Part shown: positions 84 through 10,944 of the stretch, piece after piece
How the letters are laid out: each line of letters opens with the position of its first letter
How positions within the stretch are numbered: the first letter of the stretch is position 1
DNA from: Candidatus Heimdallarchaeota archaeon
GTDB taxonomy: Archaea; Asgardarchaeota; Wukongarchaeia; Wukongarchaeales; JBHIFL01
Direction: 5' to 3'
DNA: 12,241 nucleotides
Assembly: GCA_046761065.1 (NCBI GenBank)
Contig: JBHIFL010000102.1
Coordinates: 1-12,241 of the forward strand
Translations under genes and position numbers: made by a program
The notes under the pieces: generated by a model
Told to the model about the DNA's origin: nothing
The model's input: the letters and a program-made list of their open reading frames with translations, nothing else
Database searches by the model: none

Positions 84-362
84 TTAGAGGTTAATTATAC
101 CTATTAATAAGGCGCGATATAAACTAAGAATTTTAAAGAGAGAATCGGCGATTGATCTCCCAAAAACCAAAACTGACACCACTTTTAACGGCAATAGGTG
201 AATTTTGGCAATAAAAGTACGGATGATACCTGATTCCTTTAGCGTTTGGATTCTCTTATACACTGTGTTGACAGATAAACCTAGCTTGTCGGTGAGTTTT
301 CTGTAGGGGGTTTGAGAATTCGTCATTAAAAGCTTAATTAAGGCTATATCTGTCACGTCCAT
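84..362 (-). pseudogene. Lrp/AsnC-family winged-HTH transcriptional regulator, apparently C-terminally truncated (92 aa)
   Basis: From the ATG at 362 (GGGAG about 11 nt upstream) it reads MDVTDIALIKLLMTNSQTPYRKLTDKLGLSVNTVYKRIQTLKESGIIRTF, matching the Lrp/AsnC HTH pattern (D..D..I...L..N.R....LA..LG.S...V..RI..L...GII..F). Similarity fades after VLVFGRS, with no complete effector-binding (RAM) domain. The track start at 467 is probably spurious. Confidence 0.65.
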
Positions 363-473
363 TACGAACGAACTCCCTACAATCATCATAACTAGGTATC
401 TAAAAGCAATGGAATGGAATAATGTTAAACTATTTATTCTTAAAAAAGTACAAAAAGAAGAAATCAACTAGAA

Positions 474-977
474 TTACGCATAAAACATTTTATCTAATTC
501 AGTACCTTCGAAAATATCTGCTGTTGTTCCCCGATTTTTAATAATAATTACATGGATAATTTGTTCTGCAGTCTCATCAGTAATTCCTACTGCTTGCTGT
601 AATTTTTCCAAAAATTCTTTTTCTCGAGGATCAACTATCCCATCAGCTAAAACCACTTCAACTGCATTAGCAAAAGCAGTATCTCTCATATCTTTGTTAA
701 TAGTGTTTTTGGCGGCGGTTATGAGTGTTCCCACCCCTTCTTTCCGGATAATTTTCTGAAATCGAACTATTAAATTTTGAAATTGTACAGGGGTTAGTGT
801 CGCAAGGCCTTTGAATCTCGAAAGAATAAAATTTAATTGATGTAATTCTTCTGGTCTTATCTCTTCATCAGCTAACATGGCACTAAATATAATGGCAATG
901 AATGCCTCTTCGCTTGTCAAGCGTAAAACAGCTACCCTTGTGTCATTAACTTTAAAGGGTTTATCAAAAATCCCCAT
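474..977 (-). CDS. TerB-like (tellurite resistance TerB family) protein
   Basis: Two TerB-type acidic motifs: AMLADEEIRPEE and AVEVVLADGIVDPREKEFLEKLQQAVGI. The all-helical character fits. Likely start is the ATG at 977 (MGIFDK); the track uses a TTG at 989. Confidence 0.8.
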   Translation of the reverse strand: MGIFDKPFKVNDTRVAVLRLTSEEAFIAIIFSAMLADEEIRPEELHQLNFILSRFKGLATLTPVQFQNLIVRFQKIIRKEGVGTLITAAKNTINKDMRDTAFANAVEVVLADGIVDPREKEFLEKLQQAVGITDETAEQIIHVIIIKNRGTTADIFEGTELDKMFYA

Positions 978-1128
978 TCCCGCATACAAACTTAATTGTT
1001 TTACTTTAACTATAAAAACATTTTTCTAATTAAAAATTAATATAATTCTTCTGATTAAATATTAAAAAATAACAAAAATAACATTTTAGCTTAAATTAAG
1101 TCTATTAAAAATATAATGGAAGGAGATC

Positions 1129-2091
1129 CTAAAATAAGAGTACTTGTATAAATGGGGCGGTGAAATAACCAATAATCAAGAAAATGCCTGTCATCATATG
1201 GGTCATGATTGTCATAGCACTAGCTGGAATCATCTTTCCTGGTTCATTATAGAATGATTTGGCAAATATGTTTGCTTTTAATGCGAAAAGAATACCGGGA
1301 ATGAGGACAATCAGACAGGTGATAGGCATTTGGTTCAAAAACACCATGGCTACAACCCACACATATGGACCATACAATAAAACGGGGACGAACCGAATCG
1401 CAGTATCTCGTCCCATACGAACAACCAAGTTGTTTTTTCCAACTTGACCATCGGCTTCGATATCAGGGAACTCATTTATATAAATAACTGCAAAGATGAG
1501 AAGGCCGATAGGCACACTAGCTACAATGGGGGCCCATGAAAATTCAGACCCTTGGGCATAATACCCCCCAAGAGTGGCAAGAGGCCCAAAAAAGGTACCA
1601 ATGACCAACTCCCCCACTGCTCGATGAGAGAATATAATGGGTGGTGCGGAATAAAAGTAACCAAAAAATGTCGCAGCAACTGTCAAGATTAGAACCACCC
1701 AGCCTGTCAAAAAAGAGAGATAAACTGAGAGAGATATTGCAAGTAAGAAGTTAAAAATCGCGACTGTGTGGAGACTAGAAGGTTTCAATAAATTTTCAAC
1801 AAGAACGCGACTGCCTCCGTTAAATGGGCTGTAGAACTTATTGATGCGGTCTGTTCCATTAAATGTGTCCCAAAAATCGTTAGCTTGATTTGTCCCGCTA
1901 TGCAAAAGGATCCCAATGATCAGTGAGAGAAAAAAGTTAGTTACACTAAACTTCGACTGGCGTTGCCAGAAAATTGCTGCCCCCAAAACAATTGGGAGGA
2001 TCACTGCAGTAAAGAACCGCATTCGCGTTGCTCGAACCCAAATTTTTAATCGGTCGCGTAAAGGTGTAATTTCAGCAGCTTTTTGCATCAT
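1129..2091 (-). CDS. menA: 1,4-dihydroxy-2-naphthoate polyprenyltransferase (MenA, UbiA superfamily)
   Basis: 320 aa multi-TM protein with N-terminal W..ATR..F, first Asp-rich motif NQANDFWDTFNGTD, then GGSRVL, YFYSAPP...RAVGEL, and second motif NEFPDIEADGQVGKNNLVVRMG. Confidence 0.88.
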   Translation of the reverse strand: MMQKAAEITPLRDRLKIWVRATRMRFFTAVILPIVLGAAIFWQRQSKFSVTNFFLSLIIGILLHSGTNQANDFWDTFNGTDRINKFYSPFNGGSRVLVENLLKPSSLHTVAIFNFLLAISLSVYLSFLTGWVVLILTVAATFFGYFYSAPPIIFSHRAVGELVIGTFFGPLATLGGYYAQGSEFSWAPIVASVPIGLLIFAVIYINEFPDIEADGQVGKNNLVVRMGRDTAIRFVPVLLYGPYVWVVAMVFLNQMPITCLIVLIPGILFALKANIFAKSFYNEPGKMIPASAMTIMTHMMTGIFLIIGYFTAPFIQVLLF

Positions 2092-2177
2092 TTAAACCAA
2101 CTCAAAATTATGAGGTCTTAGCGCCAAAATGAGGAAGGGAATTTAAATTTACCTCAACGAAGCACTTCTTAATTATT

Positions 2178-2585
2178 TTATGTTTTTTCATTGATTAATG
2201 CCCTAATTTTCTTGCTTTTCTCAAGAAACATAACCAAAATCGTGTTCTTTACAGATCATGCTGGAAAACATTTAACTGGCATTTTCCCACAATTTAAAAA
2301 TACCTAATTTCAGAAAAGATTGGTAATTTGGCTAGCTGGCGAGTGAAAAGATGAAGAATGAAGTCAAGACGGAGGAAGGAAAAAATATTGCTGTGGGGCT
2401 TTCTGAGAATTTGCTCAAATTGAATGTGAAGATAGCCTCCGTGAACAGGGATTTGTTTCGGTAACAAGACTTTAGGACAATCAATGTCCTAGGATCTATT
2501 GTGATCAAGAAAGACCTCACTTGTTGCAGAGATAGTAAAACGGTTGAAGAAAGGATATCGACTCGTCTTTATTGTAGGAGACTTA
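2178..2585 (+). repeat. Diverged direct repeat, copy 1 (hypB upstream region plus first 78 codons)
   Basis: Aligns to 11389..11795 at offset 9211 with one 1-nt insertion. In the coding part I counted 43 substitutions over 234 nt by hand (~82% identity). Confidence 0.95.
2351..2585 (+). pseudogene. hypB: hypB 5' fragment pseudogene
   Basis: Reads MKNEVKTEEGKNIAVGLSENLLKLNVKIASVNRDLFR then TAA at 2462-2464 (AAA in the intact copy). A +1 insertion falls in the P-loop codons (attgtgatca vs attggatca), and homology ends after the ...GDL codons at 2585. Confidence 0.92.
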
Positions 2586-2702
2586 ATTCAAATAATAGTT
2601 TTAATTGTGTCTTTCTTGGTTTTTTTTAAATCCTCAATTTTTTTATAATCGAAAGAAGATGTGAAGATTATAATCTGGCTCATTTTTAGAATTCCAATAA
2701 AT

Positions 2703-2787
2703 AATTATTATTTAAGGTAGGCATCTAACAAGAATATTTTATATAATATAAGTTTAAGTCTTCTGATGCCTAATTTTTATAATAATT
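2703..2787. repeat. Imperfect inverted repeat, 23-bp arms with a 39-nt spacer
   Basis: aattattatttaaggtaggcatc (2703-2725) versus the reverse complement of 2765-2787 (aattattataaaaattaggcatc): 19/23 match. Confidence 0.55.
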
Positions 2788-3077
2788 TTATATACTTATT
2801 ATACATAAAGTAAAATATATACAATAAATCTGATTATGTGCGATATCTGAACAATATGAATAATTAATCTTCTATTTAGACCCTGAAATGGTGATTTGCT
2901 TTAAATCATGTCCATATTTGGAATTGCATTGACAGAGTTAATATTAAACAGACAAATAGGTATTGTCGAGACTGTTGCAAGAAAAACTGTGAAATGGGGC
3001 ACACAAAAGTGGTTTCACTTAGGGTTCGAGTGGGGATGTAATGAATTTAGATATCGCAACTTAAACATGACAACGTA

Positions 3078-4349
3078 ATGAAGTGGGATACAATGGACAA
3101 ACATCCAAATCCTCCTTTAGACTTATTTTCTCCCCTCGTATACAAATGGTCTGTTGAGGAGATATTTAGGAATCTATGGCCTTTCAACAAGTTTCGCCCT
3201 CCAACCAGCTTAATTATTTGTAGCCTGATCGTCACATTAATAGCAAGTGTCACTGGGTTTCTATACGCGGTTCCATTGGGAACTATCATTGCTGGGATTC
3301 TAGCCGCTCAAGCCATAATCTTTTGTTCTCTTCAAGTCACCAACTACGCGGATTCCATAAGGAACACCCAATTTGATGTCCTAAGTTCGGGGGGGCATGT
3401 ATATGCAAAATTGTTGGAAAAATACATAAGAACAACCTTTAGCGATTCGCATATTTTGATTGGAGTTGCTCTTATTACTGGAACACTCGCACACCTTTTC
3501 AATCGCACGTACGTGCTTAAAGAAGTTCTAGGTGGGATAAATTCAGTCTTGATGGTGTTTGTGCTTATCCTAACCCTTGGGGTTTGTTATAGTTATGGGC
3601 TAACTGTCTGGGCCTCTCTTGCTGCTTTTTGGCGTTCATGGACGATTCGATCCCTCTATCTGAAAGGCGTTCTCGACTTTTATCCCAATTTCACTCAGTT
3701 CAAACGCCTTGATCTTCAGAGTTTGTCCTTCATTGGGAGTTCGTGGTTCTTAATCCCTGCGGCTCGCTCCGATTTGGTCTTGTTATATGGAGTAATCTCT
3801 TATAATCTGACAATGCTTGGAACAGTTCTCGCTTCCTTGCTGCTTTCCTCCTCCATACCTCGCCTGCCCTCTGAAATCCGGAAACTTCTGCATAAGGGAC
3901 AGTTCATCTATATTGCCGCAGCTGACCCACAAACCAAGCACCCACATGTGACTCCCGTGATTTTTGTGTACGATGAATTCCATGTGTACTTTTATACCTC
4001 TCTCAAAGCGTACAAATATGCTCTCATGAGACAAAATAAGCGAATTGCACTTTTGATTCCCGAACCACAAGTGGAACATCTAGAAAAAATGGAGATGCTA
4101 ATATTAGAAGGATCCGTCGACATCTTAGGATTTGCCAAGACGCTTTTACTGTTGCCTCTATATATTAGGACATTTTTACTGATCCGAAGAAAATATCAAA
4201 CATATTGGCGGATATATCGGAAGAATAGCAAGTATTTGCCCCGAGCATGGCAAGTTAAGCCATTTTTGGATCGAGTTCTGTTACGGGTTAGACCGCGTAA
4301 ATTGACTTGGATTAAAACACCAAAAAAAATTACAGCGAGGTTGGATTAA
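3078..4349 (+). CDS. Multi-TM membrane protein fused to a C-terminal pyridoxamine 5'-phosphate oxidase-like (split beta-barrel, flavin/deazaflavin/heme-binding) domain
   Basis: About 6 hydrophobic segments in aa ~45-260. These are followed by EIRKLL...IYIAAADPQTKHPHVTPVIFVYD...YFYTSLKAYKYALMRQNKRIALLI...LILEG...RVLLRVRPRKLTW, the characteristic PNPOx-like pattern. The start could be 3093. Confidence 0.75.
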   Translation: MKWDTMDKHPNPPLDLFSPLVYKWSVEEIFRNLWPFNKFRPPTSLIICSLIVTLIASVTGFLYAVPLGTIIAGILAAQAIIFCSLQVTNYADSIRNTQFDVLSSGGHVYAKLLEKYIRTTFSDSHILIGVALITGTLAHLFNRTYVLKEVLGGINSVLMVFVLILTLGVCYSYGLTVWASLAAFWRSWTIRSLYLKGVLDFYPNFTQFKRLDLQSLSFIGSSWFLIPAARSDLVLLYGVISYNLTMLGTVLASLLLSSSIPRLPSEIRKLLHKGQFIYIAAADPQTKHPHVTPVIFVYDEFHVYFYTSLKAYKYALMRQNKRIALLIPEPQVEHLEKMEMLILEGSVDILGFAKTLLLLPLYIRTFLLIRRKYQTYWRIYRKNSKYLPRAWQVKPFLDRVLLRVRPRKLTWIKTPKKITARLD

Positions 4350-4849
4350 TGACCCAACCTATCCAGTCACATCATATTCCTCGCACCATTGAAACCTTAG
4401 TAAAACAAGCCAAGGTCGGAATTCTTACTACATGCTCGATGGATGCGCTTCCTCACCCTGCGATTATATTCTACTGTTACTACCCTATAGAAGATACCCT
4501 TTATTTCTTCACATCACGGACGACAAGAACTTTTCGATACCTTTGTCAGAACCCCAATGTGTCAGTTTGTATAGATCAACGTGACCTTCGTAATCCTATG
4601 AGAAACTTCGGGGTAATGCTCCGTGGGCTTGCGAAGCACATCAAAAATGAAGAAGAAATCAATCGTGTCCTTAAAGATCTTTTAAACAAAAAGTACCGTT
4701 CCCTTCCCAAGGATTCACAAAAGCTGAAAAAGAACTATTGGTGGCTTGTCCCACCAGACCGACGATGTTTCAGGCTTGAGATCACTACCATGGTCTGGTG
4801 GCGGGGTCCATATTTCAGGAAAATCCGAATACGACCTCAGAAAATTTAA
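4349..4849 (+). CDS. Pyridoxamine 5'-phosphate oxidase-like (split beta-barrel) family protein
   Basis: Motifs VGILTTCSMDALPH...LYFFTSRTTRTFRYLCQNPNVSVCID...GVMLRGLA...FRLEITTMVWW. The start overlaps the upstream stop (TAATG), with GAGG at 4337-4340. Confidence 0.82.
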   Translation: MTQPIQSHHIPRTIETLVKQAKVGILTTCSMDALPHPAIIFYCYYPIEDTLYFFTSRTTRTFRYLCQNPNVSVCIDQRDLRNPMRNFGVMLRGLAKHIKNEEEINRVLKDLLNKKYRSLPKDSQKLKKNYWWLVPPDRRCFRLEITTMVWWRGPYFRKIRIRPQKI

Positions 4850-5317
4850 TTATCTCTTTGAAGATGTTGTCAGAATGCTAATATGATGGAAATGATTCAA
4901 ATAATCGAAAGATATTATATGGTTTTTCTGTTGAATTTAATAACACAAATTCGAGGTAATATCGATAGAATTTACGGCACAGAGGACAAATTTGGTTGCC
5001 CCATTAGAGAAAATGATATCTACATCAGTTTTACATACTCATAGAAATATAAGAACTCTCCACTTCTTGTTATCAACATCCTGAACCGATATTCAAGTAG
5101 AACTTCATTTACCTATTTCGGGGGTCCTGGAATATTCTTTTAGAATATAAGTAAAAATGATTATTTTTGATAAACTAAATGTTTAATTAACATATTAAAT
5201 AATTCTAGTATAGTCCAGTATAATCAATATATACTAATGCATATGTATAATTGAATAAATACAAATATATATGAAAAAATGAAAGTTTGTCGTTATAAGT
5301 CGTATAGTAGGATTCGT

Positions 5318-5356
5318 CTTTATAGAACCTTTAATCTTCCAAACACTTCGCGAAGT
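5318..5356 (+). promoter_or_regulatory. Candidate promoter (TATA-like CTTTATA / CTTTAAT) and 12-bp palindrome upstream of the DOMON operon
   Basis: Perfect palindrome ACTTCGCGAAGT at 5345-5356, just downstream of the TATA-like elements and 32 nt before the ATG. Confidence 0.35.
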
Positions 5357-5388
5357 CGTCCATATTATTTTGAAAGAGATGACGAAAA

Positions 5389-6546
5389 ATGAAGAAAAGG
5401 ATGATGATCTTTTTTATTGGTCTCCTATTGATTTATTGGACTTCGAGTTCGAGCAGACAACTCACACAAGCTGTGGGCATTCCATACGTTGCAGATAATA
5501 AGGTAATCATAGATGGAACTATCGGTTCGGGGGAATACGTTGGGTCTTATCACGAGACGATAACAGATATGTACCTTTACTGGGAACATGATGGGACTAA
5601 CCTTTACATCGGGATGGAATCCCCAGGTACAGGTTGGGTCGGTATAGGGCTCGGGCCGCAAGGGGCAGGGATGGATGGTAGTAATATGATTGTGGGCTAT
5701 GTTGACGATGCAGGTAGTCTACTATTGCTGGACGAAGTTGGAGTCGGCTGGGAACATCATGAAGATACCACTCTTGGAGGTACGGATGATATCCTAGCTA
5801 AAGCAGGATCCGAGAGTAATGGGAAAACGATCATTGAATTCGTTTTTCCCTTGAATTCGGGGGATGAACTGGATCATTCATTCGAAGTGAGCGGTACCTA
5901 TGGGTTTTTTCTTGGCTATCAAGCCTCTGCAGACGATTTTACTTCATATCATACAAAACGATCTAAAACGATTGACATCTACATAATATCTGGCTCAACT
6001 GAGCTTCCTGAGCCGGAAACAAAGGTTAGCACAACCATAAGTATCAACGTACCTGCAAGTGTGATTGTAGATCAAGCGTTTACTGTAGTAGCAAGACTTC
6101 ACGATGAAATGGGAGCGCCGGTTGAAGGTGAACCCGTCGAGTTTTATCGGATCACAACATTTGGAAAGCTGGAATTAGGCCAAGTGATGACTAACTCGAA
6201 GGGAGACGCTACTCTGGAATGTCGAATGCGCATGGCTGGATCCGTGGAGTTCGAAGCTAGTTATGGTGGCTCCGCGAATCGGGGATCATCCAGTGCTAGC
6301 GTGTCTCTCCTCGTTCAACCGCTAATCCAAGAGGAACCAGCAAGGATCGCTCTTCCAGGAATTTCAATGGAGATTTCTACCGATCGTTTCATTTCCTTAC
6401 TTGGATTAGGAGTTATTTTTTGGGTTTTAGGGTCGGTCGCCCTCACTTTTGCGTATGTAGGCTATCAGATCATTTCTTTGTATAGGGAGAAAGAAAAACC
6501 AGATGAAGAGTTCGTAGAACCATTGAGGTATGAGTGGCGCAGATGA
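5389..6546 (+). CDS. Secreted, C-terminally membrane-anchored DOMON domain protein (predicted Met/His heme b) with an Ig-like stalk
   Basis: Signal peptide MKKRMMIFFIGLLLIYW. DOMON signature GWVGIGLGP..AGM95DGSNMIVGYV, and a His in the terminal region (FTSYH188). Pro/Glu linker, then an Ig-like domain (VVARLHDEMGAPVEGEPVEF...TNSKGDA...FEASYGG) and a TM helix at about aa 335-362. No CxxCH motif. Confidence 0.82.
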   Translation: MKKRMMIFFIGLLLIYWTSSSSRQLTQAVGIPYVADNKVIIDGTIGSGEYVGSYHETITDMYLYWEHDGTNLYIGMESPGTGWVGIGLGPQGAGMDGSNMIVGYVDDAGSLLLLDEVGVGWEHHEDTTLGGTDDILAKAGSESNGKTIIEFVFPLNSGDELDHSFEVSGTYGFFLGYQASADDFTSYHTKRSKTIDIYIISGSTELPEPETKVSTTISINVPASVIVDQAFTVVARLHDEMGAPVEGEPVEFYRITTFGKLELGQVMTNSKGDATLECRMRMAGSVEFEASYGGSANRGSSSASVSLLVQPLIQEEPARIALPGISMEISTDRFISLLGLGVIFWVLGSVALTFAYVGYQIISLYREKEKPDEEFVEPLRYEWRR

Positions 6547-7319
6547 ATTTGAGTCGTAGACGATTCCTAGGAGGCCTTGTAGCAGTAGGTTCAATAATCC
6601 TCTTAGGACAATTATTCTCCCGTGTTGGAGCGTTGAAGAATGGGCCCGTGGCAAGCAGATACTCAAAAACACAATCGGTGGGAAGCACAAAAAAATGGGG
6701 CATGTTGATCGATCTAATGCGATGCAATGGATGTAAAGCGTGTACGAGGGCTTGCAATCTAGCTCACAACGTACCAGAAGGTCAAGAGTGGATTAAGTGT
6801 TATATACTTGAAGAAAATCCCATGAGTGGTGAACATTTTTTTGTCCGCCCCTGCATGAACTGCCAAAATGCCCCCTGTATTAAAGTTTGCCCGGTCGGAG
6901 CATCATATTATAACGAAGAGGGCGTTGTCCTTATCGACAATAAACTCTGCATCGGGTGTCGATTTTGTATGGCAGCATGCCCATATGGGGCGCGGTACTT
7001 CAATTGGGGAGAACCTGAACAGGCTGCTAATAACCCCGATAATGAGAGTACGCCGGAATTTGCCAACATCCACATTAAAGGTACTGTTGAGAAATGTGAT
7101 TTTTGCGTTCATTTTGCTCGTGATGGGACTTTGCCGCCATGTGTAGTGGCATGCCCAACAAAAGCGATTTACTATGGTGACTTTGCCGAAAATGCGGTGT
7201 CAAATACTGATGAGACGATCCCACTGATGGAGACTCTTGAGCACAAATTTGGGTATCGGTTCAAGGAGGAACTAGGAACCGAGCCACGCGTGCACTACCT
7301 GCCTCCACGCAGGGATTGA
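6543..7319 (+). CDS. Tat-exported four-cluster [4Fe-4S] protein (NrfC/PsrB/DsrO/QrcC/ActB2 family)
   Basis: Tat motif SRRRFLG followed by a hydrophobic stretch. KKWGMLIDL then CNGCKACTRAC, CMNCQNAPCIKVCP, CIGCRFCMAACPYGAR and KCDFC...PPCVVACP (16 Cys), with C-terminal GTEPRVHY. The ATG at 6543 overlaps the DOMON stop (ATGA). Confidence 0.93.
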   Translation: MNLSRRRFLGGLVAVGSIILLGQLFSRVGALKNGPVASRYSKTQSVGSTKKWGMLIDLMRCNGCKACTRACNLAHNVPEGQEWIKCYILEENPMSGEHFFVRPCMNCQNAPCIKVCPVGASYYNEEGVVLIDNKLCIGCRFCMAACPYGARYFNWGEPEQAANNPDNESTPEFANIHIKGTVEKCDFCVHFARDGTLPPCVVACPTKAIYYGDFAENAVSNTDETIPLMETLEHKFGYRFKEELGTEPRVHYLPPRRD

Positions 7320-7372
7320 ATCTGAATAACCAGTTGGGGTGTCCTTCTGAATGCTATCGGTGATGATGACAT

Positions 7373-8728
7373 ATGGAAAGAGTATTTGAAGAAGAGAAAG
7401 TGGATGAATTAGAACAACAGATGCTTCAGCCCATGATCCGAACAGGGAAGCTGTTTTATGCCTTTATTGCAATGCTTATAGCTGTCATCGGGTGGGCAGG
7501 CTATGCATATCATGTCCAATACACACGAGGTCTTATAGTAACAGGAATGAGAGACGTTATCCTTTGGGGGATTTATATCACAAATTTTGTGTTCTTTATT
7601 GGCATCTCTCATGCGGGCACACTCATTTCGGCCATTCTACGGGTCTCAGGAGCCGAATGGCGGCGACCTATTACGCGAATGGCTGAAGCTATAACCGTCT
7701 TTGCCCTTATGGTCGGAGCAACCATGGTCTTAATAGATCTGGGGCGCCCAGACAGGCTATTGTACATAATAACGAATGGACGTCTCCAATCTCCAATCCT
7801 ATGGGATTTCATCTCCATTGGTGCCTATATAACCGGAAGCATAATTTATCTTTACCTTCCTCTCATCCCAGACATGGCTATATGTAAAAACAAGCTACCT
7901 AACCTCTCTGGATGGAAAAGGCGCCTTTATGGGTTACTGTCAGTTGGGTGGACGGGCAATGAGCGGCAAAAAAAACGACTCAAAAAGAGTATTTCAATAA
8001 TGGCCATCTTGATTATACCAATTGCCGTCTCGGTCCATACAGTAGTCTCCTGGATGTTTGCCATGACCATGCGCCATGGGTGGCATAGCACAATCTTTGG
8101 ACCTTACTTCGTAGTAGGAGCGATCTTCTCCGGTATTGCAGGTATCATTCTTGCAATGGCAATTTTTAGGCGCGTATACCACCTTGAAGGCGTTATAACT
8201 CGCGATCATTTCAACTATCTTGGGCTGCTGCTTTTGACATTAGATGTCATCTATATTTATTTCACTATAAGCGAGTACCTCACAGCAGGATACGTAGGTG
8301 AAACTGCAGAAGCGCGGTTGCTTAGGGAATTGTTCAGGGGGCAGTATGCATATCTTTTTTGGTCAATGATCCTAATCGGATTTGTGCTACCCGCATTTCT
8401 CCTAGCCTATTCTAGGACACGAACGATCAAGGGAATTGTAGTTGCTTCTGTCTTGGTCAACATTGCGATGTGGATCAAGCGTTATATAATTATTATCCCA
8501 ACTTTATCCCTTCCACTCGTAGCGGGTGGCTGGGGGCAGTATACGCCAACATGGGTCGAGTTATCCATCACGGCGGGAGCAATCGCGGGCTTCATACTGC
8601 TTTATACGATCTTCTCAAAGATCTTCCCAATCATCTCCCTCTGGGAGGTGAAGGAAGGCCAAGAGAAGATGGAGCCAATGACCGCAAAAGTTGAACCCGA
8701 GGGTGTACCGACATTCGGCTCCCCATAA
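7373..8728 (+). CDS. NrfD/PsrC-family quinone-interacting membrane subunit, ~10 TM, ActC-like
   Basis: WGIYITNFVFFIGISHAGTLISAIL, WRRPITRMAEA, DLGRP, SPILWD, SVHTVVS, GWHSTIFGPYFVVGAIFSG and YTPTWVE match NrfD-family motifs, especially ActC. A GGTGA RBS lies at 7359-7363. Confidence 0.92.
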   Translation: MERVFEEEKVDELEQQMLQPMIRTGKLFYAFIAMLIAVIGWAGYAYHVQYTRGLIVTGMRDVILWGIYITNFVFFIGISHAGTLISAILRVSGAEWRRPITRMAEAITVFALMVGATMVLIDLGRPDRLLYIITNGRLQSPILWDFISIGAYITGSIIYLYLPLIPDMAICKNKLPNLSGWKRRLYGLLSVGWTGNERQKKRLKKSISIMAILIIPIAVSVHTVVSWMFAMTMRHGWHSTIFGPYFVVGAIFSGIAGIILAMAIFRRVYHLEGVITRDHFNYLGLLLLTLDVIYIYFTISEYLTAGYVGETAEARLLRELFRGQYAYLFWSMILIGFVLPAFLLAYSRTRTIKGIVVASVLVNIAMWIKRYIIIIPTLSLPLVAGGWGQYTPTWVELSITAGAIAGFILLYTIFSKIFPIISLWEVKEGQEKMEPMTAKVEPEGVPTFGSP

Positions 8729-8777
8729 GAGATAGGAATTTACGCCCAAGAGTGGCTGCAAAGGGTTCAAAGAATTG

Positions 8778-8837
8778 TACCACTCCACGAACTAATGAGT
8801 CTCAATATACCACTCCACGAACTAATGAGCCTCAATA
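8778..8837. repeat. Tandem direct repeat, 2 x 30 bp
   Basis: taccactccacgaactaatgagtctcaata (8778-8807) and taccactccacgaactaatgagcctcaata (8808-8837): one mismatch, no spacer. Confidence 0.95.
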
Positions 8838-9024
8838 TAAGGCTTAGCAATGGGCACGCAGCCTTTTTAGTCATTAAAGCTGTGATTCAAGCTTTTTGAT
8901 AACCTAAATAAAACAACGTAGCAATTATCAATAACAATATTCTTCTGCATATCGATCAGAGAGAATGAGTTCGTAGTCAGTCTATTTTTGGTTTTAAATT
9001 CCTATCTTGATCCGAACTGATACT

Positions 9025-10944
9025 TTACTGAATTTTATCCTCCATATTCGAATCTTGCTTACAATCTCCTCGTGCAATATGTTTTGCAAGGATTGCCACA
9101 ATGTCTGTAGCCTCGATCGCACCATTTTCTTTATTCAGTGCTGCTGTTTCTTTGAGGATCTGGACACAAGCGGGGCAAGCAGTCACCAAAGTTGTTGCTC
9201 CTACATTTATAGCCATCTGGATGACTTCTGGGGACATTTTGAGGGACATCTGATTATTCACGAGCCGGAGGCCCCCTCCTGCCCCACAACAATGTGTATA
9301 ATTTCGATTTTCTTCCAATTCGACAAATCCGGCAGTTAGTTGCCTTAGCAGGTCACGTGGTTCTTCATAGACACCCAAATATCGTGTCAATTCACAAGGA
9401 TCATAGTAGGTCAGCTTTCCAACTATGTATTTTCCTTTTGGTTTCAGTCGCCCCTGATCCAACGCTTCCTTTACCAATTCAACAATGTGTTGCGTCACAA
9501 ATGGCAAAGCATTCCCCAAGAGCTCCGGATAAAGATGTTTAAATGTTTTATAACAGCCTGGACAATTGAACACCACTTTTTTAACCCCTAAGGCTTCGAG
9601 ACGTGCAATATTGTGTTTCGCTAATTTGTGAATGCTGTCTTGATTCCCCAGAAGCTTGAGGGGTAGGCCACAGCACCATTCGTCTGATCTTAATATTACC
9701 CACTTGTCCCCGAGGATACTCAAGATATCTCCGACGGCTTGGCCAACAACCTCTAATGCTCCTGAGAAAGAAGTAAGGCAACCCATAAAGTATGCGATGT
9801 CTGCATGCTCTTCATCCGGAAAGTCGAAGAACATCCCGCGGTCGTCATTATCCATGGCAAAAACATTTTTTTCCTCGATAATAGCCTTTTCTACTGTCAA
9901 AATCTTAGGTGGTGCTTGTTCGGCCTTATGAAAGGAGGAGCGCGCTTCAAGCCACAAATCAGCTAAATCTAGACCACTGGGACAAACAGTCGCGCATCGA
10001 CCACAAATGGTGCATTCCATGAAGGTACCTTGTTTCAATTCCTCTACGACTGGTTGAGAGGGTTGACGTGGGCCTACAATCCGTGCTAGAAGGCCTTTTT
10101 GAGAGGTGACCACTTTTCGAAGGTTTGCAACACGCGTTCGGGGCGCAATAACAACATTTTCATGGCCTTGATAGACTGGACAGACATCATTACAATTGCC
10201 ACATTTCCCACAGGCGTACAGATTGGCAAACCGAATGATCCCGAAATTCGTGGCATCGAATAGCCCACGAGGAGAGGTAGGTTCGATTTTAAAGGGTTTG
10301 GGCTTTTCCTTCGGGGTCGGGAACAGGCCTACCCGCGAGAGTTGCAGGAGTACGTTCGCGAGGGCCTTTCTCAGAAGACCACCTCCAAGTAAAGATAAAA
10401 GCAACCAGCCGTATCCTAAAAGAGCATGACTCGGAGAGTCTGGGATGACGATATGGAATGTATAGTCACTGATATTCTCAGGAACCCCAAAATCTTTTAC
10501 ATAAGTGCCCCAAAGGCCAAGATTCCAACTGTAAGACATTCCATAAATGGTGAAAATTAGCAATAACACAAACTCGGCATAATCGATGCGTTCTAGTCCT
10601 TCGCGTAGCTGATGGTTGAACAACAGCTGGAGTATGTAGGCTACCAGAACGAGACCAAACACCAGTAATGCCCATCGATGAAAGATTCGGAAGGGGTACG
10701 CAATCCCCCCAGGTTCCAGGATCGCATGATCGAACTTCGTGATGGCAAAAAGAAGATCCATGCCCACACAGGAAGTTATGCCCAAGAGCATCATGATGTG
10801 GAAAAGCCAAGCAAGTTTCGAACTATAAAAGATTGGGCGAAAAATTATTAATCGTTCAAGAAAACCCTTTGATGTTTCAGATAGAGGATATGCAAATGCA
10901 TTGATCTCCTTTTTCATTCTTTTAGAGGCAGGCGCCCGTGTCAA
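9025..10944 (-). CDS. Membrane-bound heterodisulfide-reductase-related Fe-S oxidoreductase (NarI/HdrE-like TM domain + 2x[4Fe-4S] + two CCG domains; HdrD/GlpC/HdrF-like)
   Basis: About 4 N-terminal TM helices with His49/89/164/173. Ferredoxin motifs CGKCGNCNDVCP and CTICGRCATVCP. CCG domain 1: YFMGC...EWCCG...NCPGC. CCG domain 2: YYDPC...HCCGAGGG...TACPAC. TTG start with GGAGG 6 nt upstream. Confidence 0.9.
   Translation of the reverse strand: MTRAPASKRMKKEINAFAYPLSETSKGFLERLIIFRPIFYSSKLAWLFHIMMLLGITSCVGMDLLFAITKFDHAILEPGGIAYPFRIFHRWALLVFGLVLVAYILQLLFNHQLREGLERIDYAEFVLLLIFTIYGMSYSWNLGLWGTYVKDFGVPENISDYTFHIVIPDSPSHALLGYGWLLLSLLGGGLLRKALANVLLQLSRVGLFPTPKEKPKPFKIEPTSPRGLFDATNFGIIRFANLYACGKCGNCNDVCPVYQGHENVVIAPRTRVANLRKVVTSQKGLLARIVGPRQPSQPVVEELKQGTFMECTICGRCATVCPSGLDLADLWLEARSSFHKAEQAPPKILTVEKAIIEEKNVFAMDNDDRGMFFDFPDEEHADIAYFMGCLTSFSGALEVVGQAVGDILSILGDKWVILRSDEWCCGLPLKLLGNQDSIHKLAKHNIARLEALGVKKVVFNCPGCYKTFKHLYPELLGNALPFVTQHIVELVKEALDQGRLKPKGKYIVGKLTYYDPCELTRYLGVYEEPRDLLRQLTAGFVELEENRNYTHCCGAGGGLRLVNNQMSLKMSPEVIQMAINVGATTLVTACPACVQILKETAALNKENGAIEATDIVAILAKHIARGDCKQDSNMEDKIQ

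Follow-up and report, generated by a model that had tools for sequence, protein, structure and literature searches.

A conserved DOMON, ferredoxin and NrfD gene trio of Asgard archaea with the features of a quinol oxidoreductase carrying an exchangeable head

Membrane proteins of the NrfD family have been catalogued as modules that serve molybdoenzymes, hydrogenases and multiheme c cytochromes, and no DOMON or b-heme head is listed among their partners (PMC8076601, 2021). Here we describe a 12,241-nucleotide (nt) stretch of DNA (the window), contig JBHIFL010000102.1 (C102) of a Candidatus Heimdallarchaeota archaeon metagenome-assembled genome (MAG; GCA_046761065.1; 4.4 Mb, 234 contigs, 91% complete, 8% contamination), in which three co-oriented genes encode a stalked DOMON protein (P0001), a four-cluster ferredoxin (P0002) and an NrfD-like membrane protein (P0003). 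The trio is probably one membrane complex, a stripped-down menaquinol:acceptor oxidoreductase resembling alternative complex III (ACIII) with a heme-b DOMON exit, and we assign it to the class of NrfCD/ACIII-type quinol modules with a new, modular head subunit. The original prediction, made from the sequence of this DNA, knew of no characterized complex with such a composition. We likewise found no published description of a DOMON, iron-sulfur (FeS) and NrfD combination in the open-access literature, including the NrfD family review (PMC8076601), although subscription journals could hold one.

Among described systems, ACIII (ActABCDEF; structures 6f0k, 6btm, 6lod and 8k9e) shares with the trio an ActC-type NrfD protein of ~10 transmembrane (TM) helices that keeps the signature serine and arginine, a FeS module with four clusters and twin-arginine (Tat) export that corresponds to the C-terminal half of ActB, and a presumed role in handing quinol electrons on to an external one-electron carrier. 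Unlike ACIII, the trio has no MopB-like ActB1 domain, second NrfD protein (ActF), pentaheme ActA or monoheme ActE, and in their place stands a single-pass DOMON protein on an immunoglobulin-like (Ig) stalk, a candidate for binding heme b. The gamma subunits EbdC, NxrC and SerC/ClrC/DdhC of the type II DMSO-reductase family are DOMON-fold heme-b proteins that exchange electrons with ferredoxins of the P0002 superfamily, but they serve a Mo catalytic subunit without NrfD, whereas the trio has no Mo subunit, carries its DOMON on a stalk and would seat its ferredoxin on NrfD. The Psr, Phs, Ttr and Arr complexes differ in having a molybdenum bis(pyranopterin guanine dinucleotide) subunit, which is encoded neither in the window nor in the trio loci examined; a PsrA-like gene lies on another contig. 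As a predicted outward-facing electron exit of the Met/His type, the DOMON further resembles, by fold, the cytochrome domain of cellobiose dehydrogenase (CDH), AIR12 and CYBDOM. In CYBDOM (b561-DOMON) the DOMON is fed by a transmembrane module. Eukaryotic DOMON cytochromes are fed by a flavodehydrogenase or cytochrome b561, in contrast to the FeS/NrfD pair found here, and at 12-14% identity the likeness is one of fold.

Operon structure and the three subunits

The genes for P0001 (5389-6546, + strand, 385-residue open reading frame), P0002 (6543-7319, + strand, 258 residues from an ATG at 6543, or 261 from an alternative GTG at 6534) and P0003 (7373-8728, + strand, 451-residue open reading frame) are tightly packed. 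The start of P0002 overlaps the stop of P0001 in an ATGA at 6543-6546, and 53 nt separate the P0002 stop (7319) from the P0003 ATG (7373), just as had been predicted. The predicted boundaries were also found, with a 539-nt AT-rich intergenic region upstream (4850-5388, + strand; GC 0.30-0.32) and a convergent gene downstream (9025-10944, - strand) that encodes an HdrD/DsrK/TfrB-like protein. The promoter presumably lies inside 4850-5388, where a TTTATA-like element occurs near 5317-5325; the sigma-70 promoter and terminator models applied are bacterial and uninformative for an archaeal window. The further claim that no room is left for another subunit stands for the operon itself but not for its surroundings, since each of the two genomic copies has, immediately upstream, a gene for a DUF7530 membrane protein, a possible accessory part. 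Consistent with the predicted lack of a Mo subunit and a cytochrome c, the three proteins contain no CxxCH motif, and a Pfam search of the window returned no molybdopterin gene (no PF00384 match) and no cytochrome c family match. A single NrfD gene is present in the operon and in the window as a whole.

P0003 matches NrfD (PF03916) over residues 56-377 at 126 bits (cut-off 25.8). Its full-length match to ActC of the four solved ACIII structures (6lod_C, 6f0k_C, 6btm_C and 8k9e_C; E-values of 1e-70 to 9e-62) upholds the view that it is ActC-like, with residues 32-435 aligned to 49-459 of 6lod_C at 1.3e-70; the match to ActF is weak (2e-7). Hydropathy analysis gave ~10 hydrophobic segments, indicating an ActC-type protein with 10 TM helices and not a PsrC-type protein with eight. 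The signature of the NrfD family consists of a protonatable residue in TM helix 2, a conserved serine at the quinone pocket and a gating arginine in TM helix 8 (PMC8076601). In P0003, Asp122, Ser140 and Arg370 align with R. marinus ActC His139, Ser164 and Arg395, positions with assigned roles in quinol deprotonation, at the quinone pocket and as proton gate (PMC8076601), and all three are invariant in 12 orthologues. An aspartate at the first site, where ActC has histidine, is the state seen in DsrP, QrcD and HybB. The best NCBIfam match of P0003 is DsrP (124 bits, cut-off 350) and that of P0002 is DsrO (188 bits, cut-off 200), sub-threshold matches that arise because ActC, ActF and DsrP form one NrfD group (PMC8076601). 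P0003 is thus an NrfD protein of the ActC/DsrP clade, presumed to hold the menaquinol/menaquinone site and proton path.

P0002 carries a Tat signal (SRRRFLGG) and 16 cysteines in four C-x2-C-x2-C-x3-C-type motifs that are invariant in 12 orthologues, where an SRRxFLK motif is also present. It matches Fer4_11 in Pfam (67.6 bits) and, among PDB entries, ArrB (5e-33), PsrB (2e-31) and the C-terminal domain of ActB (3.5e-22), together with EbdB (3e-15) and NxrB (5e-12) from the same ferredoxin superfamily. The alignment to ActB covers only residues ~681-991, the MopB-like N-terminal domain being absent from P0002. From its signal peptide and four cysteine motifs, P0002 is predicted to be a Tat-exported ferredoxin of the NrfC/PsrB/ActB2 type, and because all 16 cysteines are present, four [4Fe-4S] clusters and no 3Fe cluster are expected. 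Two homologous loci (L031, L032) encode a FeS protein with a C-terminal extension of ~110 residues.

P0001 is predicted to be Sec-exported and is made up of a signal peptide, a DOMON domain (~28-204), an Ig-like stalk (~211-295), a C-terminal TM helix (~331-369) and a short charged cytoplasmic tail. The DOMON domain (PF03351) scored 54 bits against a Pfam cut-off of 32.7 over residues 60-174. The Ig-like domain (Big_1/Big_3_5, residues 221-309) scored below cut-off (Big_1, 30.7 bits) and is a clear beta-sandwich in the AlphaFold2 (AF2) model, while the helix at 331-369 is seen both in that model and by hydropathy. Confidence in the AF2 model is high over residues 30-200 (predicted local distance difference test, pLDDT, ~90). 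When the DOMON model was compared to known structures with VIA-align, the top match was EbdC (Z 16.4, root-mean-square deviation 2.6 Å over 163 residues), and further matches included NxrC (Z 14.8) and the cytochrome domains of pyranose dehydrogenase and CDH (Z 13.3-13.8; CDH 13.7). A profile of the DOMON alignment gave only chance-level matches to PDB sequences, which leaves the fold as the sole tie to DOMON cytochromes of known structure.

His188 is invariant in 18 P0001 homologues, and Met95 is kept in 17 of them, the other having Lys. Judged from aligned ranges only, the pair lies within a few residues of Met65/His163 of CDH, which we take to be the heme ligands of its cytochrome domain (as in the title of entry 1pl3). 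We infer that the DOMON of P0001 is a candidate heme-b domain with Met95 and His188 as candidate ligands. The predicted architecture of this subunit (DOMON with these two residues, Ig stalk, C-terminal anchor) is thus matched by Pfam, the AF2 model and conservation in 18 homologues, heme binding itself being predicted. Since EbdC and NxrC dock on ferredoxins related to P0002, electron transfer between a DOMON fold and a four-cluster ferredoxin has precedent.

Conservation of the trio and exchange of its head

Contig C117 of this genome carries a paralogous operon, which encodes a DOMON protein of 390 residues, a FeS protein of 257 and an NrfD protein of 451, at 42-61% identity. Searching 400 Asgard genomes with the NrfD protein recovered 14 orthologues (E<1e-60), spread over 11 genomes. 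Of these 14, 11 have a DOMON match within ~2 kb on the same strand; the remaining three lie at the start of their contigs, with no upstream DNA assembled, and none of the 11 assessable orthologues lacks a DOMON gene. Hodarchaeales and Heimdall MAGs carry the trio too, as do a Thermofilaceae MAG (in the order DOMON-FeS-NrfD) and a Geothermarchaeales MAG, where it is reordered to FeS-NrfD-DOMON with overlapping genes. Gene overlaps within the trio were seen in several loci, and no molybdopterin gene adjoins the trio in the loci examined from any lineage. A genome search with a narrow DOMON alignment gave seven loci. Bacterial DOMON loci (L024-L028) and short archaeal DOMON genes (~250 residues; L008, L009 and L033-L068, from Asgard archaea and Bathyarchaeia) are mostly not beside FeS/NrfD genes, showing that the linkage belongs to the long stalked form and not to DOMON genes generally.

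The DOMON-FeS-NrfD trio is a real conserved unit on four independent grounds, namely the paralogue, synteny in Asgard genomes, recurrence outside Asgard archaea and the metagenome loci described below. Searching genomes for conserved adjacency of DOMON, FeS and NrfD genes without a Mo or CxxCH partner had been proposed as a check, and the adjacency was found for 11 of 11 assessable Asgard genes and in other lineages. The proposal of a three-subunit, quinone-linked complex with an anchored DOMON protein gains support from the strict synteny, the paralogous operon, the reordered trio in another phylum and the exchange of head domains, all of it comparative evidence. A complex prediction with NrfD residues 15-435, FeS residues 45-258 and DOMON residues 28-375, each with its alignment, scored 0.55-0.56 and two swapped-partner controls scored 0.00, but replacing NrfD with an unrelated protein gave 0.60, so this score is not specific and is counted neither for nor against binding.

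The third subunit proved to be modular. NrfD homologues at 57-67% identity were found in Thermoplasmata, Thaumarchaeota and Chloroflexi, in loci that hold a FeS gene, an NrfD gene and a third gene of ~310-340 codons. The C-terminal two-thirds of the third protein, comprising the Ig domain and TM helix, can be aligned to the stalk and anchor of P0001, but the N-terminal heads differ. The Chloroflexi head (L073) is a monoheme cytochrome c (Cytochrome_CBB3, 47 bits), and cytochrome c heads also occur in L090 and L105. A cupredoxin head scored above the Pfam cut-off in L097 (29.7 bits) and weakly in L072 and L100, and the thaumarchaeon head gave a weak cupredoxin match. In Thermoplasmata (L071, 5208-6230; L074, 4211-5230) the head is beta-rich, has no family match and contains a GGCVCH motif. 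A separate cupredoxin gene precedes the Chloroflexi operon, as the auracyanin gene does for ACIII. The Thermoplasmata trio lies beside Rieske/cytochrome b genes, a multiheme cytochrome c gene and tatAC.

A search of the whole library with a stalk/anchor profile was dominated by giant proteins with many Ig repeats, and head types were counted instead in metagenomes scanned with the NrfD alignment, of which the best 80 loci were kept. A DOMON-headed gene stood directly beside the FeS/NrfD pair in 11 of these loci, a CxxCH head in five and another or short head in six (one cupredoxin above cut-off and one with two cytochrome c domains), while in five the stalk was fused to NrfD. In 21 loci both flanks were assembled and no stalk gene was present; all of these are ACIII/Qrc-like, with a pentaheme c protein of ~170 residues, a protein of ~800 residues, FeS and NrfD proteins and tetraheme c proteins. 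Flanks were too short to score in 31 loci, and one had no usable NrfD call. The fused form (L092, L128, L129, L142 and L143) has an Ig-stalk segment joined to the C-terminus of NrfD (650-700 residues in all), and no redox head was recognized in it.

In a FastTree phylogeny of 100 NrfD sequences, a quick and approximate tree with weak inner nodes that was rooted on two 8-TM paralogues from this genome, all stalked-head types fell in one clade (support 0.87) within which DOMON, cytochrome c and other heads were interleaved. Its sister clade (support 0.99) was the multiheme type with pentaheme and tetraheme c proteins and the ~800-residue protein. Since the DOMON is exchanged for cytochrome c or cupredoxin at the end of a conserved tether beside the FeS wire, it is most simply a one-electron carrier, and this pattern argues for a redox role of the DOMON head. 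The original prediction that the DOMON replaces c-type cytochromes is supported within the operon, where the heads are exchanged and no CxxCH motif occurs. It does not hold in the sense of a stand-in forced by a missing maturation system, because the organism can make cytochrome c: contig C35 (L020, 26000-45111) encodes a full CcmABCEF set and two cytochromes c of 7-8 hemes, next to a second NrfCD-type cluster with a FeS protein of 354 residues and two 8-TM NrfD proteins of ~291 residues each.

Other DOMON loci showed further variation. Third subunits with two tandem DOMON domains, ~570-600 residues long, occur in Hodarchaeales and Heimdall loci (L003, 8001-9707; L006, 8001-9713; L029; L031), and in L003 and L006 the trio is followed by a LANC_like gene and a gene for a ~260-residue protein without a family match. 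A lipoate-protein ligase gene (LplA-B_cat) adjoins DOMON genes three times, at the C117 operon (L019, 78-1247), at a short DOMON gene on contig C54 (L021, 3886-4977) and upstream of the Geothermarchaeales trio (L004, 146-1258).

Proposed electron flow and alternative readings

In the proposed mechanism, menaquinol would bind at the outer membrane face of the ActC-like NrfD protein (MenA is encoded in the window), and its electrons would travel through the Tat-exported ferredoxin, by way of four [4Fe-4S] clusters, to a heme b held by Met95 and His188 in the DOMON. The C-terminal helix would tether the third subunit beside the complex and the Ig-like stalk would lift the DOMON above the membrane, so that its heme could act as a one-electron exit to a partner outside the cytoplasmic membrane. 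This reading is built on results computed directly, namely domain content, gene linkage, the ActC/DsrP-clade residues, a heme-b-cytochrome fold with ligand candidates and the interchange of DOMON, cytochrome c and cupredoxin, from which we infer heme binding, physical assembly and direction of flow. The DOMON b-hemes of CDH, AIR12 and EbdC lie well above menaquinone in potential. Quinol oxidation is favored for that reason, and because the alternative heads are typical high-potential carriers of the acceptor side.

Several observations weigh against this assignment. The best NCBIfam matches of the FeS and NrfD proteins are DsrO and DsrP and not any ACIII model, and the DOMON model also matches the heme-free DOMON of dopamine beta-hydroxylase (Z 14.5) and sugar-binding CBM9 modules (Z 12-12.6). 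Neither a heme-copper oxidase (COX1) nor cytochrome bd subunit I was found in the 91%-complete genome, and COX1 was not found in the trio-bearing Thermofilaceae and Geothermarchaeales genomes. A Tat-exported PsrA/PhsA-like molybdoenzyme is encoded on contig C132 (L014, 1-3006) by a gene that ends at the end of the 3-kb contig, with its own FeS and anchor genes cut off, which leaves a small probability of a molybdoenzyme partner encoded elsewhere.

Complexes of the NrfD family run in either direction, and QrcABCD reduces menaquinone (PMC8076601, PMC13059093). The trio might in the same way be a Qrc-like menaquinone reductase in which the DOMON heme b takes electrons from an extracellular or pseudo-periplasmic donor, such as reduced metals, sulfur species or a cytochrome, possibly in an electrogenic manner. 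This would fit the quinone-site aspartate shared with QrcD, DsrP and HybB in place of the ActC histidine, an anaerobic hydrothermal-vent habitat, a genome in which no O2 reductase was found, and the adjoining membrane-anchored HdrD-like protein, a candidate consumer of quinol. The potentials of DOMON b-hemes nevertheless make such uphill reduction unlikely without a strong driving force, the swapped monoheme cytochrome c and cupredoxin heads are typical of the quinol-oxidizing side, and the cupredoxin gene ahead of the Chloroflexi operon repeats the auracyanin arrangement of ACIII. We consider reversed flow unlikely.

Forward flow through an ACIII-like complex must also be set against a redox loop of the DsrMKJOP type, with which the trio shares a periplasmic heme protein (predicted here), a DsrO-like FeS protein and a DsrP-like NrfD protein, as in DsrJOP, as well as an adjoining HdrD/DsrK-like gene. 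The DOMON would then take the place of trihemic DsrJ and work through the menaquinone pool with the 9025-10944 product, which would reduce a cytoplasmic disulfide. Besides the DsrO and DsrP matches and the shared NrfD group of ActC and DsrP (PMC8076601), this agrees with the match of that neighbor to DsrK and TfrB/HdrD models, with its N-terminal membrane domain and with a Hodarchaeales locus where a split HdrD-like homologue and the trio are 5 kb apart. However, every Dsr score falls under its curated cut-off, DsrK included (106 bits against 400), the candidate heme subunit is a b-type DOMON and not a triheme c protein, and most other trio loci have no HdrD-like gene; the C117 copy of the operon adjoins SdhC/SdhB and has no Hdr gene. 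PF04358 gave no match and TIGR02064 only 16-18 bits (cut-off 393), and neither DsrC nor DsrAB was found in the 91%-complete genome, where their absence is unproven. A role in sulfite reduction was rejected, DsrC and DsrA not having been found, and the redox loop as a whole appears quite unlikely.

The FeS/NrfD pair could instead be the anchor of a molybdoenzyme encoded elsewhere, such as the PsrA/PhsA-like enzyme of C132, leaving the DOMON as an accessory or side branch. P0002 does resemble PsrB and ArrB, the C132 gene has a divergent TorD/NarJ-type chaperone gene beside it and lacks its downstream genes at the contig end, and the assembly yielded only four NrfD genes. Yet the trio loci are without an adjoining molybdopterin gene in every lineage, the sister NrfD clade has its own ~800-residue large subunit in cis, and the C35 cluster (FeS plus two 8-TM NrfD proteins) or unassembled DNA can serve a Psr-like enzyme, which makes this arrangement very unlikely. 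Least probable is a DOMON without heme, a CBM9-like sugar- or surface-binding module that positions the FeS/NrfD pair for another redox partner, since despite the non-heme members of the DOMON superfamily and their structural matches, the heme-b members score highest, the Met/His pair is conserved, and a sugar binder would hardly be expected at a stalk position that cytochrome c or cupredoxin occupies elsewhere, which makes a non-heme DOMON unlikely.

If the ACIII-like reading is correct, the quinone pool would have a new and simple outlet, a tethered heme-b DOMON that is interchangeable with a cytochrome c or copper domain. A heme-copper oxidase is present in Heimdallarchaeia, both cultured and metagenomic. 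These oxidase-bearing forms are reported to have no discernible electron route to the oxidase, lacking a complete complex III, cytochrome c and a copper carrier (bioRxiv 10.1101/2025.02.26.640444), and the trio is an obvious candidate for the missing route from quinol to oxidase. COX1 is present in all ten other trio-bearing Asgard genomes, which are close kin and give weak co-occurrence evidence. A short anchored DOMON protein (~262 residues) heads a DOMON-COX3-COX2-COX1-COX4-SCO1 operon in one Heimdall genus (L045, 1942-7609; L050, 3253-7715), with cytochrome bd genes directly after the operon in L050. The DOMON at the head of Heimdallarchaeia cox operons has been called "putatively electron-transferring", with NrfD unmentioned (Appler et al., bioRxiv 10.1101/2024.07.04.601786). 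These proteins are anchored paralogues at 33-39% identity, but they are only ~260 residues long, lack the Ig stalk and are unlinked to FeS/NrfD genes, and cox genes were not found in the present genome. A quinol:Cox link was dropped for this organism, where COX1 and cytochrome bd were not found, and is kept open for other Heimdallarchaeia.

The trio also occurs in genomes without a detected oxidase, the present one included, so an oxidase link is not its only role. As a tentative and broader proposal, it may belong to a widespread and so far undescribed family of quinol:carrier oxidoreductases with three subunits and a "stalked head", each with a Tat-exported four-cluster ferredoxin, an ActC-like NrfD protein and a single-pass Ig-stalk subunit with a DOMON, cytochrome c or cupredoxin head. 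Such a family might be the missing equivalent of complex III in archaea without bc1 and soluble cytochrome c, oxidase-bearing Heimdallarchaeia among them, and in an oxidase-less vent archaeon it might feed an extracellular, heme-b-based electron chain. Acceptors here could be the other five DOMON/EB_dh heme-b proteins of the genome, multiheme cytochromes c, the PsrA/PhsA-like enzyme or insoluble acceptors. Apart from the two operons, the genome holds one further short DOMON gene (C54) and three genes of the EB_dh family, a group of heme-b proteins in the DOMON superfamily (379-460 residues; L156-L158, on C14, C34 and C30); the one on C34 lies between genes for an 11-TM membrane protein and a tetraheme cytochrome c.

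Neighboring genes and other features of the window

The convergent neighbor at 9025-10944 encodes a 639-residue protein with an N-terminal membrane domain of His-rich helices (weak b561-like match, E 0.05) followed by an HdrD/DsrK/TfrB-like domain (Fer4_8 and two CCG domains). From this composition the fusion is a candidate quinol:disulfide oxidoreductase, and the split homologue in the Hodarchaeales contig (L003) spans 249-3008.

On the other side of the operon, the gene at 3078-4349 (+ strand) encodes a fusion of a DUF7530 membrane domain with a PNPOx-like split barrel and is directly followed by a second PNPOx-like gene (4349-4849). DUF7530 (~6 TM helices) has only two copies in the genome, one in the window and one on C117 (L019, 1363-2202), each immediately preceding a DOMON-FeS-NrfD operon. 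A metagenome contig (L005, 2350-4102) also has the pair of fused DUF7530-PNPOx and PNPOx genes, close to genes for a DOMON+PKD protein and an EB_dh protein. Lying outside the operon, the DUF7530 protein may be an accessory, for example in heme handling or delivery.

The only sequencing runs that contain the window are hydrothermal-vent metagenomes, from which the assembly may derive, with no RNA run among them. The closest named homologues of the encoded proteins bear the label Candidatus Heimdallarchaeota. Downstream of the operon, 296 nt separate the P0003 stop from the convergent gene; this gap contains two tandem 30-nt direct repeats that are 97% identical (8778-8837), and is bracketed by a pair of 20-nt inverted repeats (8730-8749 and 8988-9007).

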